Shown here: positions 4,546-23,500 of the stretch, piece after piece
How the letters are laid out: the number at the start of each line of letters is the position of its first letter
Numbering within the stretch: position 1 is the first letter of the stretch
Sequence record: MN850578.1
Direction: 5' to 3' (one strand)
DNA length: 64,000 nucleotides
Source of the DNA: Escherichia phage nomo
Notes under the pieces: generated by a model
The model's database searches: none
The model's input: only the letters and a program-made list of their open reading frames with translations
Told to the model about the DNA's origin: nothing
Made by a program: the position numbers and the translations under genes

Positions 4546-4791
4546 ATGACTGAAGTAGTTGCTCGCGCAGGACAGAAAGTACGTTGTGTTGAAGTAGGTT
4601 TTGGTGGCAAAGGGTGTCAAAACTTGACTCAAGGTAAGGAATATGCTGTTATTTCTGGTGGTGGCGACGAAAGTATTGTGTTCGAGGGCCACATCCTGGA
4701 TGCTGAAAACTTTGAAATCTTTGACGACGATGGGGATCCAATCACCTGCCTGCTGGACGGGAATTGGGGAACTTTCGAAGTGATTGGCTAA
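4546..4791 (+). CDS. hypothetical protein (81 aa)
   Basis: ORF with RBS caggag upstream. Confidence 0.45.
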   Translation: MTEVVARAGQKVRCVEVGFGGKGCQNLTQGKEYAVISGGGDESIVFEGHILDAENFEIFDDDGDPITCLLDGNWGTFEVIG

Positions 4792-10039: not shown

Positions 10040-10500
10040 GGGGGATTTCTAAAATGGATTTCCTCCTTTTGATATTTCACCGGGCTGGATATTTTAAAAT
10101 TCTTAGAAAATCAGAAAATGGATCGAAAACTAAAATGGATTTTTCAGAGTAGGCGCGACAAGCTGAATAACTCATCCTATCGTTTGCACCATATTCCAGG
10201 CCACCATTATAGATTTCCCACACATGCTAACCTCCCTCTACTAGAACTTCCTCCACTTACCCTTGACCTTCTATGGTAACAATCTAACCGCTATCTTGAA
10301 GTTGCGGTGCAGCTTTCCAGGTACTCGATCTACTTTTCATTTCAGGGCTTGGATTTTCTGAAAATTTTTCTCGATAAATTTCTCAGTACTCGATCTGTTT
10401 TTCGTCTTCTGAATCGGATTTTCTGGAAATCGTTCCGGCTCTCAACCTGAAATTTTTGGGGACGAAATCGATTTTTCGTTTTCAGAAATGGATTTTTAAA
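10040..10500. repeat. iteron-like direct repeat region (AAATGGATTT x4; ~50-bp units GTACTCGATCT...GGATTTTCTGRAAAT x2-3)
   Basis: Direct repeats read at 10051, 10117, 10133, 10487 and tandem units 10317-10367 / 10382-10432; no ORF. Confidence 0.6.
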
Positions 10501-10610
10501 ATTTCTATATGGGAATATTTTAGTGGATACTATTTTATAGTAAATTGTTACGGAGGGTAATTAGCGTGCTAATTAAATTTATTAAATGCGAGGAGTTCTC
10601 ATTTAGAATC

Positions 10611-10629
10611 TTGAATGATAATCATTCTC
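10611..10629 (+). promoter_or_regulatory. Fur-box-like operator 1
   Basis: ttgaatgataatcattctc: 15 of 16 core positions match Fur consensus AATGATAATCATTATC. Confidence 0.55.
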
Positions 10630-10642
10630 GTTTGCAGAATAA

Positions 10643-10682
10643 CGGGCAGGCCCGGTGATTGTCTCCCGGCCCCTGTTGCCCC
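10643..10682 (+). repeat. conserved GC-rich element copy 1 (GGCAGGCCYGGTGATTGTCTCCC...CCTGTTGCCC)
   Basis: Near-identical copy in reverse orientation at 20262-20300 and diverged copy at 10787-10810. Confidence 0.5.
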
Positions 10683-10746
10683 GGCTTGTTATTATAGTAT
10701 CACACAGGACAAAGAAAGCAAGGATTTTTTTTTGCATAAATTTTTA

Positions 10747-10765
10747 AATGATAATGATAACCGTT
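10747..10765 (+). promoter_or_regulatory. Fur-box-like operator 2
   Basis: aatgataatgataaccgtt: 11 of 12 match to GATAATGATAAT half of Fur consensus. Confidence 0.5.
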
Positions 10766-11024
10766 CTCATTTTATGCAGCGCTCATCCCTGGTGGTTGTC
10801 TCCCCCGTCACCGGTGCCTGCCGTCCTTTCGATAGGTATATTGTGCCACCTGTCGGGGCCGCTGTCAACACTTTTCAAAAAATTTTTCTAACCTGATGCG
10901 CTAACCGCTGCAACCTGGCGGGGCCAGCCTGGCAGGACCTAACTGACCAGGTGGGAGAGGGTGAAATCTTGCAAACCTGGTAGGCCCATGCTGTAGGGTA
11001 AACAATTGAAGAGGAGGTACAAAA

Positions 11025-11150
11025 ATGAAAGGTAATGCTACTCACCTGGGAAATGTAGTGATTAATGATACAGAAGCGCGGGAACATAAAGAAGAGTACG
11101 AAAAAATGGTGGTTAACCTGGCGGGGGGCGGCAGGTGGATTCTATCATAA
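11025..11150 (+). CDS. hypothetical micro-protein (41 aa)
   Basis: Strong RBS gaggagg 6 nt upstream of ATG; below ORF-track size cutoff. Confidence 0.3.
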   Translation: MKGNATHLGNVVINDTEAREHKEEYEKMVVNLAGGGRWILS

Positions 11151-19541: not shown

Positions 19542-19690
19542 CCGTGAAAAAGATAATCATTACCTTGGGGATTGTGGCGGGATCGCTGGCGCTCTTTCCC
19601 CTTATGGTTAGATATGTGCTGATCAGTATTGTCCTGGTGGTCAGTGATCTACTAGAAACGGTTGGCACCTTGTTTTAAAGAGCGATAAAA

Positions 19691-20190: not shown

Positions 20191-20261
20191 ATAAAAGTGT
20201 TTTGGTACTGATTTTGGGGTTGACTTGTTCGGCCCCTTTTGCTATTCTTATTAAACGGGCG

Positions 20262-20300
20262 GCACTTGGGAACAGGGGGAGACAATCACCAGGCCTGCCT
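20262..20300 (-). repeat. conserved GC-rich element copy (reverse orientation) matching 10643-10682
   Basis: Reverse complement reads ggcaggcctggtgattgtctccccctgttccc. Confidence 0.5.
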
Positions 20301-20407
20301 GTCATATAAGAACTATAAAAACCGTTGACATCTGCCATGGGGTGAGGTAACATTTATCTTGAAGGGGCAAAAGTGCCCACACAACAACCAGAAGAGAGGA
20401 AAACATT

Positions 20408-20680
20408 ATGTCAAGCTGGATTAATCAAGAAGTCGAATCACGTTTTAATGCTATTTGGGATCTCATCGAAAAAGAGGACGGAACATCAAGCCCTTATCTC
20501 AATAATCTTGAATTCCATTTCGTGGAAGCGATGAACGCAGAACATGATCACGAAGGTGGTGCGGATGAGTTCGCTAAAGGGTATGGCTTCAACAATGCCA
20601 ACGAAATGATCGAGGCGGTTGTACTCCAGGCTGAGGAAGATTATCAATTAAAAACGCTTGAATTCTGCCGCCGTAAGTAA
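20408..20680 (+). CDS. hypothetical acidic protein (90 aa)
   Basis: Promoter ttgaca 20325 - 17 - taacat; 5' hairpin gggcaaaagtgccc; RBS agagagga. Confidence 0.5.
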   Translation: MSSWINQEVESRFNAIWDLIEKEDGTSSPYLNNLEFHFVEAMNAEHDHEGGADEFAKGYGFNNANEMIEAVVLQAEEDYQLKTLEFCRRK

Positions 20681-20742: not shown

Positions 20743-21006
20743 ATGAAACGTCTTGACCAGCTCAAACTAGTTCAATATATGGCTTATCGTGTTCTGGAAG
20801 TCCAGAAAGGTAGCAAAAAAGAGGTTTGCGAGAAAGCTTATAAGATCTTTACCCGCAAAAAAGATGACTGGATGCTACGCCAGACCAAAAAGGCTGACAT
20901 CTTGGGGTACCTGGAAGAAGAGATCCGACTTGAAGAACAAGAAGAGATCCGCCGTAGTGAGGCAGATTATCAGGCAGCTTGGGAAAACTGGATGAGCAAC
21001 AAATAA
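20743..21006 (+). CDS. hypothetical protein (87 aa)
   Basis: 5' hairpin gggccaaaaggccc; RBS aaagagga. Confidence 0.5.
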   Translation: MKRLDQLKLVQYMAYRVLEVQKGSKKEVCEKAYKIFTRKKDDWMLRQTKKADILGYLEEEIRLEEQEEIRRSEADYQAAWENWMSNK

Positions 21007-21025
21007 TACAACAAGATGAACGGTC

Positions 21026-21050
21026 AGGGGCTTAAAGCCCCTTTCTTTTT
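21026..21050 (+). terminator. rho-independent terminator ending the + strand gene block
   Basis: Hairpin aggggcttaaagcccct followed by ttcttttt. Confidence 0.65.
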
Positions 21051-21059
21051 GTCTTCTCT

Positions 21060-23500
21060 TTTCCTACCATAAACGGCCCTACCTGGCAAGTGGAATAATT
21101 GACGAGCCATCAATCCCACACACTGTACAAATATACATGGAAAATAACTATTGCATAATTTTTCATTGTGTGGTAGCAAGGCCATTTTTACACGTTTTTC
21201 CTTCCAAAATTGCACGTAATGCAGCATTTGCACAAAATTTAACCTGATGCATATCTTCAATAGCTTGTCAACAACTAAAAATCTTTATAAGTCATACACT
21301 TACATAACTACAAAAACGTTTTCTACGTGAAAAATCGAGTATAACTATAGCCGCCAGATCTCAGAATTTACGTACGCTCGCCATTCTATAGCCTGCTAAG
21401 CATTTATTCCAACCATAGAATAACTGAATAGTCAATACCTGCATAAAATAATTATTCGTGTAAACTGCATAACATAAATCGGCCCAGGTGTCAACATTTT
21501 TCGTAAACAGTCTGGAATTGTCACGTTAGGTTACCATAAGTAGAGAAATCTTTAGTCGTCTAATGTTTACTGTACGTTACTATATTAACTGAAATCATTA
21601 GATGACTAATAGAAAGATAAGAAATAATTAACAATACAATTATTTTATCTGTAACAATAAGGCAACTATGCAAACGAATGGCATGGCGCGACGGAGTCGC
21701 GACATAATATAAAAGCAGTAACCATCACCCCCGTGATAGTTTGTCTGCAAACTATTAATCAGATCATAGTTGCCTTGTATTTAGTTAATCATGACATAAC
21801 AAGCAAGGCAACTATAGATCTGCTAATAGTTGCCCTGCTTTTATATTATGTCATGCTAATTATAATCAGTGCGATTATTGTCATGTATAATTATTGTCAT
21901 GCAAACGAATGGCATGGCTGATTATCGGTGTGTAAACAGTCAATCATGTAAATGGTTAGCATGTGAACAATCAGGAATGTAAACAATCCAGTGTGTAAAC
22001 TAATAGGTGTGTAAAAGTGTCATGTTGTGTCAGTTAGGTCACATTATGTCAGACAAGTTTTTCTCCTCTTTGTCAAGTGCTGCATGAAAAATTTACAAGC
22101 TTGTATGGTAGCATTTTTGCGGCCCTGTTTACATTCAGGAGTGTATGTATAATCCTTGTTGTGTGGGCGTTTAGACGTCTGGACGGTCAGAAGTCTGCAG
22201 GTCAATATCTAATCTATTGGCTGCTAACTATATCCCCCACAAATAATAAGAAATATAATTGTTATGTGCGTAAACAGTAACCCATGTTATCAATCCCTGT
22301 ATGTATCGCCAGTTGTGCGCATAATGGGTATTATGTTAAATTGCCCGTAATGATAACTATTCTCACAATGATAGGTATTCTCATTCACCCCCACAAGATA
22401 GGTTGCAAATGTTGTGCCACTGTGTGAACGGCCTCACCTATTAATTTGCCTCACTGCCTCGATATTTGAGAATTGTTATAAGAATGAGAAGTATTCCCAT
22501 TCCGTCCGCCTGGCAGCACTCCAGTCGCTACGGCTCCTGACAGGGCAGCACTCCTGTAGGTCAGGTCAAAATCGTGGTAGAACTGGACCTGTTCGGATAT
22601 TTCTGGCTGACTCTTCAGGTCTGTGTGGGAAAAGCCAACCCCTCCGGCGGGGCAGGGGATATCTGCAGGAAAATTGCAGGTCAATTAAAAATTTACGTGG
22701 TGTATGAAGCGCTCTTCAGGCAAGGCATGTATTAGAGGATGAAACCCTCTTCAGGCAATGATATTTGTGGGTGGGATATTTGCTGGAAAGCCAGATATGA
22801 CGGGACTCCCGGCGGGGCAGGGGTAGTACAGACAGGGAAAATATGAGGATGTAATTGGGGAAATTGATCAGACAGGTAGAGTATGGAATATGTTACAGGT
22901 ATGTTAAATATGGAGGTTGAATATCTGTAGGATTTGTGTGTAAAATCAAAGACTTAAGGGGTGTTGTGGTATTTTCTATAAATAATTCAAGTTTAATAGG
23001 CAATATTTGTCTCTATCCGCTTTGTGTGGTAAACAGATTCAGATGAAATTGGTTTACAAGTGTATACATAATATACAAATTAAAGATACAAGAAACCCCC
23101 CTCCCCCCTCGGCTACCATTCACCTTTTCCTCTGACTGGTACTTAAACACTTATTCAGACTCTTCAGGTTATCACCCATATATCATATGGCAGTGACTGG
23201 TGTCCTCCGGCCCCTCTTTCGTCACCCGTCCGCTTCGCCATGCTAATGCCATAGCCAATGGTTCGGTTGTTCACCCTGTTCACTCAGGTGTATCTCCATA
23301 CCCCTTCAAACCGAAGAGAACAGAAAACCCGAATTACTCGGTAAAAGAAAAGAGAAGAACTTAATTTTATCAGGATAGGCAAGAATGTCAAGGCATGACT
23401 GCTCACTAAACAAGCAAACAGTCATGTGTGGAAGGTAAGTGATTGTGGTGGTGGGAAATTTAGTTGAAAGATGTGTTATAGGTGCGCTTCCAGCACTTTA
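21060..23500. other. 2.5-kb non-coding convergence region with several repeat families
   Basis: No convincing ORF; repeats gcaaacgaatggcatggc (x2), tgtgtaaac-like array 21928-22016, ctcttcagg...ccggcggggcagggg units 22606-22840. Confidence 0.55.

Follow-up and report, generated by a model that had tools for sequence, protein, structure and literature searches.

Clusters of Fur-type boxes and a conserved GC-rich element in a non-coding region of Escherichia phage nomo and its rV5-like relatives

The stretch of DNA analysed here, referred to as the window, is made up of 64,000 nucleotides (nt) from Escherichia phage nomo (sequence record MN850578.1), which belongs to the Vequintavirus (rV5-like) group. 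Phages of the rV5 type are widely used in the typing of E. coli O157 and in therapy cocktails (PMC3606486). Flanked by small genes that are read rightwards, a segment of 745 bp (positions 10280–11024) contains no convincing gene; it is in this segment that two Fur-like boxes and two copies of a GC-rich element are located. The 901 bp around the locus are 99% identical to those of Escherichia phages nomine and CarlMeissner and 90–99% identical to those of about 100 further Vequintavirus genomes. Two tandem leftward units can be distinguished in the sequence, each containing a promoter, the GC-rich element and a cluster of Fur-like sites, and they are followed by an AT-rich stretch and three direct repeats (Table 1). 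The order of these modules is the same in other genera. An earlier note, made from the letters of the window alone, had called the region gene-free. The substitutions found in it are indeed not of the coding type, but some records annotate a hypothetical open reading frame (ORF) of 92–95 amino acids over both units.

Table 1. Features of the locus and of the third copy of the GC-rich element (positions in the window).
Feature	Position	Strand	Description
Three iteron-like direct repeats, about 47–57 nt	10311..10496	.	spaced 65 and 74 bp; core GTACTCGATCT...GGATTTTCTG
AT-rich stretch, 24–28% GC	10450..10599	.	between the repeats and Fur-box cluster 1
Fur-box cluster 1	10596..10641	.	hits 10611-10629 (16.6 bits) and 10617-10635 (16.2 bits), 6 bp apart
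GATAAT-like hexamer CAGAAT	10635-10640		additional hexamer of Fur-box cluster 1
GC-rich element, unit 1	10632..10684	-	predicted transcript start AAGCCGGGGCAACAGGGGCCGGGAGACAAUCACCGGGCCUGCCCGUUAUUC; invariant core GAGACAAUCACC
Unit 1 leftward promoter (putative)	10691..10734	-	-10 TATAAT (10696..10691), -35 TTGCTT (10721..10716), 19-bp spacer, A9 at 10734..10726
Fur-box cluster 2	10744..10774	.	hits 10744-10762 (11.4 bits), 10750-10768 (21.0 bits) and 10756-10774 (13.0 bits), in 6-bp steps
GC-rich element, unit 2	10769..10833	-	core GGGGGAGACAACCACCAGGG in the minus-strand sense
Unit 2 leftward promoter (putative)	10840..10889	-	TTGACA (10868..10863), 17-bp spacer, TG, CACAAT (10845..10840); 10/12
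Motif (A/C)CCTG(G/T)CGGGGCC	10844..11134	.	five copies to the right of unit 2; many CCWGG (Dcm) sites
Terminator-like hairpin and promoter	20216..20248	+	hairpin 20216-20236 overlaps the presumed promoter of copy 3, TTGACT-17-TG-TATTCT (20220-20248)
GC-rich element, copy 3	20255..20305	+	no adjacent Fur box; promoter 20325-20353, then a 90-amino-acid gene at 20408-20680

Box 1, with the sequence ttgaatgataatcattctc, agrees with the 19-bp Fur consensus GATAATGATAATCATTATC at 15 of 19 positions. Both boxes were found where the earlier note had placed them, at 10611–10629 and 10747–10765, although the best frame of box 2 is located 3 nt further to the right; in this register it reads gataatgataaccgttctc and agrees with the consensus at 16 of 19 positions. 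Scoring was done with a symmetrised Fur matrix, for which the best 19-mer was taken from each of 12 promoter regions that Fur regulates in E. coli K-12 (fepA-fes, fepD-entS, fepB-entC, fecA, fecI, fhuF, cirA, fhuA, feoA, ryhB, tonB and fiu). On this matrix the training sites themselves score 13.8–22.3 bits, and their median in leave-one-out scoring is 14.7 bits. Matrix scoring, which had been proposed as a check on the boxes, gives 16.6 bits for box 1 and 21.0 bits for box 2, within the range of real sites.

Each box is part of a cluster of overlapping sites. Overlapping sites spaced 3 or 6 bp apart are also what genuine E. coli Fur clusters are made of (Chen et al., PMC2189734), and both clusters in the window have this arrangement. 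The 6-bp phasing is seen in relatives as well, with matrix hits at 734 and 740 in the related locus L126 and at 701 and 707 in L127 (phiTE). Sites with at most three mismatches to the consensus were observed twice, where 0.02 are expected. When the expectation is derived by Markov resampling, the five matrix sites of at least 16 bits in the whole window compare with 0.285 expected, and the three that fall within 10280–11024 with 0.0045. Read in reverse complement, box 1 (AAACGAGAATGATTAT) has 16 consecutive nucleotides identical to the box of the E. coli fhuA promoter, while box 2 (GAGAACGGTTATCATTATC) resembles the box of the fecI promoter, GAGAATGGTTATCATTACA. Because of the matrix scores, the 6-bp phasing, the likeness to the fhuA and fecI boxes and a near-invariance across genera described below, the boxes are, as judged from sequence, very probably real Fur-type operators.

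A profile search of the whole window with nhmmer gives three copies of the GC-rich element and no more. The sequence GGTGATTGTCTCCC occurs without change at 10654–10667 on the plus strand and at 20277–20290 on the minus strand, and with one mismatch at 10791–10804 on the plus strand. The core of the element is GAGACAAYCACC; its invariant part, GAGACAA(U/A/C)CACC, is located between a G-rich 5' segment and a C-rich 3' segment that are able to pair. The spatial relations noticed earlier hold: an element follows each box, starting 19–21 nt past it (about 15–20 nt had been given), and the third copy is inverted and has a promoter match adjoining it. Near this third copy no matrix hit of at least 11.3 bits is present in 20200–20420. 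Element and Fur cluster can thus occur apart from each other, since copy 3 and an unrelated 46.8-kb metagenomic phage contig have the element alone and a cluster at about 22.35 kb has no element.

The 46.8-kb contig (L077/L078, IMGVR_UViG_3300027123_000194) has no blastn match among 50,697 phage records. It contains at least five intergenic copies of an arrangement in which TATAAT is followed after 19–20 nt by GG(G/T)GGAGACAA(T/A)CAC(C/T)G, with a T-run after four of five copies and no Fur-like boxes. As this contig carries the element without Fur boxes, the core can be regarded as a module in its own right, common to separate lineages. An exact search of IMG/VR with a 16-mer of the element mostly returned an unrelated prophage gene, and only about eight loci were relevant. 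Two other readings of the element were tried and rejected: a small ORF or Shine-Dalgarno sequence at GGGAGACAAUC fails because no shared frame contains a start codon, and a sigma-dependent pause element, with GACAAT as a −10-like sequence, requires a T that is not kept, the other genera having GACAAA or TACAAA. ToxI, the non-coding RNA of phiTE, starts with AGGTGATTTGCTACC, which is loosely core-like, and a ToxI-like RNA was therefore considered; in the text of PMC3475682 nothing was found by which ToxI could be placed at the locus, and the idea was set aside.

In the window, 19 promoter matches of at least 10 out of 12 positions are present on the plus strand between 4 and 24 kb, versus three on the minus strand, one of which is the unit 2 promoter. 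This promoter is preceded by AGAAAAATTTTTTGAAAAGTG, an A/T tract that resembles an UP element. All promoters that the scan called in the two units point leftwards. The hexamers of the unit 1 promoter are kept in Vequintavirus relatives, and a relative with a single unit (L018) has TTGACA-16-TATTAT in its place. When the homologous regions of phiTE, a Mydovirus and a Seunavirus were scanned for the consensus, two or three leftward promoters were called in them and no rightward one. Counted by hand in 11 copies from several genera, at least five of them from the 46.8-kb contig without Fur boxes, the CACC of the core begins 31–45 nt after the −10 sequence (31–38 nt if unit 2 is excepted). Because of the called promoters and this spacing, the element is taken to make up roughly the initial 50 nt of the predicted leftward transcripts, with the Fur clusters beyond it. 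On the strand predicted to be transcribed, it has the promoter-proximal position that is found in structured 5' leader RNAs such as put-type antiterminators or stabilising 5' hairpins.

The similarity extends far beyond the Vequintavirus genus. In relaxed blastn searches, unit 1 (about 10573–10731) and copy 3 (about 20216–20299) show 72–88% identity to sequences in other genera, namely Phapecoctavirus, Mydovirus, Certrevirus (phiTE) and Seunavirus, and in further phages of Klebsiella, Raoultella, Erwinia, Pectobacterium and Cronobacter. The copy 3 element is kept into Phapecoctavirus and into phages of Pectobacterium, Klebsiella and Serratia. For comparison, the whole-genome identity of rV5 with PVP-SE1, a phage of Salmonella, is below 50% (PMC3606486). 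When six genus-level representatives are aligned, box, linker and element form one conserved block that spans about 70 bp. Within it the box TGAATGATAATCATTCTCATT hardly varies at all; next come a conserved linker and the core GGTG(T/A)TTGTCTC, with diverged sequence on the flanks. Some relatives have more boxes: phiTE has three, and anhysbys, L144 and L152 each have about four. Generally, two to five matrix hits of at least 12 bits are located beside the element, the top scores being 21–24 bits. Hits of at least 16 bits are almost confined to the box and element module in those related loci that are longer. A BLAST search of 5,426 E. coli genomes with 10570–10740 revealed no homolog; the locus is therefore not a recently captured host promoter. 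About 16–22 of the phage records that match (MG0656xx), although labelled "Campylobacter phage" with Campylobacter jejuni as host, are 93–98% identical to E. coli Vequintaviruses; their host labels look doubtful.

In the reading that we prefer, and to which we assign a probability of roughly 45%, the locus is a conserved leftward non-coding control region under iron-dependent gating by Fur, rather than a pair of rightward small RNAs. The two tandem promoters, of the sigma-70 type, would start leftward transcripts that open with the element, and some 20 bp past the element each transcript would meet a phased cluster of Fur sites. Iron-loaded Fur of the host would occupy these clusters and could form an iron-dependent roadblock, or gate, for leftward transcription into the AT-rich repeat region. 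Such a role is proposed because the clusters do not cover the promoters but are located further downstream. The AT-rich repeat region itself would be a candidate replication origin or may give rise to a long non-coding RNA. As a secondary effect, the clusters might act as a sink for Fur once the genome has been amplified. Ribonucleotide reductases are iron-dependent enzymes. Both an aerobic and an anaerobic ribonucleotide reductase are encoded by rV5 (PMC3606486), and their need for iron provides a rationale for a Fur sink, not a proof. More tentatively, it may be suggested that among the virulent rV5-like phages that infect Enterobacterales (Vequintavirinae, Stephanstirmvirinae and relatives) clusters of high-affinity sites for host Fur were retained as the lineages diverged. 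They would serve either to gate a strong transcript, non-coding or close to an origin, in response to the iron status of the host, or to titrate Fur and so derepress iron uptake by the host during infection, and beside them would stand the undescribed, lineage-crossing element GAGACAAYCACC.

Several observations weigh against the proposed gating. Relative to the predicted leftward starts, the position of the clusters is about +55 to +90 and not over a −35 or −10 sequence, and repression by Fur from such downstream sites is expected to be weak. In E. coli, 83% of the Fur clusters overlap a promoter-like site, with a position over the −35 and −10 sequences of the repressed promoter (PMC2189734); at the locus, the sole overlap is with a weak and non-conserved rightward candidate, TTGAAT-18-CAGAAT. 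The unit 1 promoter was missed by the scan owing to its 19-bp spacer. Apart from the Campylobacter-labelled records and one labelled Acinetobacter, the named hosts of the phage records are all Enterobacterales, and Enterobacterales share one Fur consensus. The GC skew turns at about 23–24 kb and about 61 kb and not at 10.6 kb, and no DnaA box is present in 10280–11024, so the idea of an origin lacks independent support. As for the element, RNAalifold predicts no consensus pairs (0) from 20 copies. An 8-bp closing stem, proposed by hand, has 66.7% of its cells paired versus 61.4% in shuffled alignments and 30–57% when the stem is slid along; its covariation, 0.24 versus 0.19, is marginal, being reached by 11 of 500 shuffles.

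On these grounds a conserved RNA structure was dropped. Single-sequence folds of the element are mostly not significant. Unit 1 has z = −2.1 on the minus strand and −0.25 on the other strand, and copies that fold well are copy 3 of rV5 (z = −3.8), L116 (−3.0) and phiTE (−1.95). The mean z is −0.81 in the sense orientation versus −0.25 in antisense, and of 23 copies, 17 fold better in sense than in antisense. Searches of Rfam with the window and four related loci, at gathering and at relaxed thresholds, gave nothing credible. It seems more likely that the element is recognised at the level of its sequence, as DNA or as RNA, than by a conserved fold.

The earlier note had read the locus in the other direction, each box being the operator of a rightward promoter for a RyhB-like, iron-repressed RNA or for early genes. 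This is unlikely to be the case. In unit 1 the box is indeed located between a possible −35 sequence, TTGAAT (10611–10616), and a possible −10 sequence, CAGAAT, which is the classical position for repression by Fur; the linker GCAGAATAGCGGGCAGG is highly conserved; and, as RyhB ends in a long U-run, the T9 run about 90 nt downstream of the unit 1 box could be taken for its equivalent. However, TTGAAT-18-CAGAAT is the sole rightward candidate; it matches at 8 of 12 positions, with an 18-bp spacer, and remains below the threshold of the scan. Mydovirus, phiTE, L142 and L145 have T, G or C in place of its −11 A, L144 and L145 have lost its −7 T, and the plus strand of unit 2 contains no usable −10 sequence. 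The absence of called rightward promoters in three other genera and the presence of the element without a box in copy 3 also speak against rightward units. Nor did the suggestion that the first unit ends at the T9 run hold up: no hairpin precedes 10726–10734, no terminator was called there, the run varies in length among relatives (T9, T6, T5 or CT5) and the plus-strand folds of the units are no better than those of shuffled sequences (z = +0.2 and −0.3). An intrinsic terminator, a conserved structure and membership of a known RNA family, by which a RyhB-like small RNA may be recognised, were all absent. Most simply, the T9 run is the other strand of an A-tract upstream of the leftward unit 1 promoter.

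It is also unlikely that the locus is purely a Fur sink, in which amplified phage sites would titrate host Fur and so derepress iron uptake to the benefit of the phage ribonucleotide reductases. Titration of Fur by multicopy plasmids is the basis of the Fur titration assay. The tandem boxes score highly and reach three or four (4–5 sites of at least 12 bits) in anhysbys, L144 and L152, they do not overlap strong promoters, and a further cluster is located in another non-coding region (22346–22382 and 22480–22498); the two reductases of rV5 fit as well. A sink, however, would not need the proximal box to have a position and orientation relative to element and promoter that are fixed across genera, and the window contains only about two to three clusters per genome. 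Such a phage strategy was not found in a full-text literature search.

Unlikely, too, is the idea that the palindromes are sites for a phage protein (an early repressor, for instance, or an initiator that binds the origin) and resemble Fur boxes by coincidence, the region 10.3–10.9 kb being a transcription-activated origin. The models for such an origin are T7, with two promoters and an AT-rich stretch, oriF and oriG of T4, and the iterons of lambda ori. One to four palindromes of 19–21 bp, about 29–31 bp apart, are located beside the AT-rich stretch and repeats of 65–80 bp, the tandem promoters aim at them, and their position is syntenic in every relative examined. An origin-like layout, with repeats beside an AT-rich stretch and two or three leftward promoters pointing into it, is thus present in the window and in relatives likewise. 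Coincidence, on the other hand, would have to yield a perfect Fur core of 13 bp, a 16-mer identical to fhuA and the 6-bp phasing. In addition, the same 18-mer, sometimes in arrays, is found in seemingly unrelated contigs of viral origin (L130, L139/L140, L149 and L151), where by a rough estimate about three matches are expected by chance; this fits a shared host factor better. No GC-skew turn, DnaA box or initiator gene was identified at the locus.

That the locus is an ordinary gene (a 93-amino-acid ORF at 10615–10896, ORF198 of rV5) or a decayed tRNA cluster is highly improbable: the ORF is intact in close relatives, with a T-run indel of 3 nt, it matches phrog_14993, and OY978796 annotates tRNA-Met, tRNA-Ile and tRNA-Lys over the homologous stretch, but the start codon of the ORF (ATG, 10615) is located inside box 1 without a Shine-Dalgarno sequence, the changes between the window and phiTE in the conserved block mostly affect the first or second base of a codon (V>I, C>T, R>G, T>A, R>T, D>V, P>R and A>V), as do three of the five changes that could be placed in close relatives, membership of phrog_14993 shows only that annotators of relatives called the same ORF, Rfam has no match for the locus, and the tRNA reading is rejected on the basis of ARAGORN, which detects no tRNA gene either in the window or in eight related loci including OY978796. 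This last record, OY978796.1 (L126), is that of Klebsiella phage vB_Kpn_K45PH128C2. Its tRNA annotations, at 711–864 and 1331–1406, are exactly over the homolog of box and element and look misplaced.

Further features were observed in and around the region of the repeats. A perfect 8-bp inverted repeat, TAATTAGC-gt-GCTAATTA, is present at 10558–10575. Direct repeats of 65–80 bp (CTCGATC ... GAAAAAATTTTT) are located at the matching position in L126 (520–640), L127 (450–640) and L128 (450–650). The repeats of the Klebsiella phage (L126) contain five GATC sequences in about 120 bp, those of the window only two; such repeats resemble the iterons or Dam-site clusters of replication origins. Just upstream of the leftward −35 sequence, relatives from other genera contain GTAAA-N5-GTAAA, for instance tttGTAAAgaaacGTAAAgacgcTTGCAA, at about 812–835 in L127, 847–870 in L126, 814–838 in L128 and 4728–4752 (minus strand) in L135. 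This matches the recognition consensus of CpxR. The window contains no exact copy of it, and 14 matches with one mismatch versus 5.8 expected. The copies of (A/C)CCTG(G/T)CGGGGCC are located between unit 2 and the next genes, one of them within the spacer of the unit 2 promoter; the motif is also present in the relatives L018 and L104.

The composite of terminator and promoter at copy 3 is found in rV5 (L122, 572–612) and phAPEC8 (L124, 1482–1511) as well. In these composites the terminator hairpin of the upstream gene holds the next −35 sequence, and the T-run runs into an extended −10 sequence. Many relatives align only from the −10 sequence onward, so that the composites coincide with mosaic breakpoints.

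Fur-like sites were also found elsewhere in the window. The 19-mer GAAAAAGATAATCATTACC at 19546–19564 scores 19.1 bits on the Fur matrix; it is located at the start of an ORF for a small hydrophobic membrane protein (GTG at 19545, VKKIIITLG...), homologous to phAPEC8_0015, and was set aside as an operator, being taken for a coding coincidence inside that ORF. A second non-coding region of about 2.4 kb (21000–23400) contains no ORF of at least 100 amino acids, borders the GC-skew turn at about 23–24 kb and probably corresponds to the box marked "non-coding" in the rV5 paper. Many repeats of the GTAAA or TGTAAAC type are present at 21930–22020. The cluster without an element in this region consists of sites at 22346–22364 (16.9 bits), 22364–22382 (12.3 bits) and 22480–22498 (12.9 bits). 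It is 93–99% conserved in 119 Vequintavirus records, where it is mostly unannotated, and a few database genomes begin a few hundred bp from it.

If gating or titration by Fur proves to be true, strictly lytic phages would sense the iron status of the host or manipulate its iron response, and how well rV5-like phages work could depend on the iron available in infected tissue or in the gut. A second and separate lead is the promoter-proximal GC-rich element, as it crosses genera, is present in an unrelated phage and is absent from Rfam. To our knowledge, all described cases of host metal-regulator sites in phage DNA concern accessory genes that temperate phages carry (stx1, sitABCD and tox, the last under DtxR control). 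In a literature search of incomplete coverage, neither Fur sites in virulent coliphages nor a transcript map for Vequintavirinae turned up, by which novelty is weakly supported.

When the locus is compared with known systems, partial similarities to several of them become clear. The primary origin of T7, oriF and oriG of T4 and lambda ori are alike in having tandem promoters that lead into an AT-rich stretch beside repeats, with a G-rich initial transcript, whereas at our locus, a candidate origin by its layout, no initiator, skew inflection or DnaA boxes were found. T4-type phages contain early cassettes of a promoter and a stem-loop, the "PeSL" elements. Copy 3 and its relatives are similar to these, with a terminator hairpin that overlaps a sigma-70 early promoter at the edge of a mosaic breakpoint. 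Unlike in PeSL cassettes, the element with its GAGACAAYCACC core forms an extra module of about 50 nt past the promoter, and units 1 and 2 have no following gene; we know of no counterpart of this GC-rich module.

Operators for host metal repressors are known from temperate phages. The stx1 promoter is repressed by Fur, and the tox gene of corynephage is under the control of DtxR. On lambdoid coliphages, sitABCD are Fur-regulated genes (PMC6969025). These systems share with the locus that operators of a host metal repressor are located in phage DNA, so that phage transcription follows, or in our case may follow, the iron of the host. They differ in that single operators are placed over promoters of accessory genes in prophages, while the locus has conserved clusters in a non-coding region of virulent phages. 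The closest likeness in detail is to the Fur clusters of E. coli itself (fhuA, ryhB, fecI and fhuF): the phage boxes have the same 19-bp motif, equal or better scores and 6-bp overlaps, and the phage clusters are alike in extent to these footprint-sized clusters of 30–45 bp. In contrast to the latter, the phage sites are arranged in tandem in a strictly lytic genome, downstream of opposite-strand promoters and without a recognisable iron gene. We rate the type of operator as known, and its context, its arrangement and its coupling to a previously undescribed conserved element as new.

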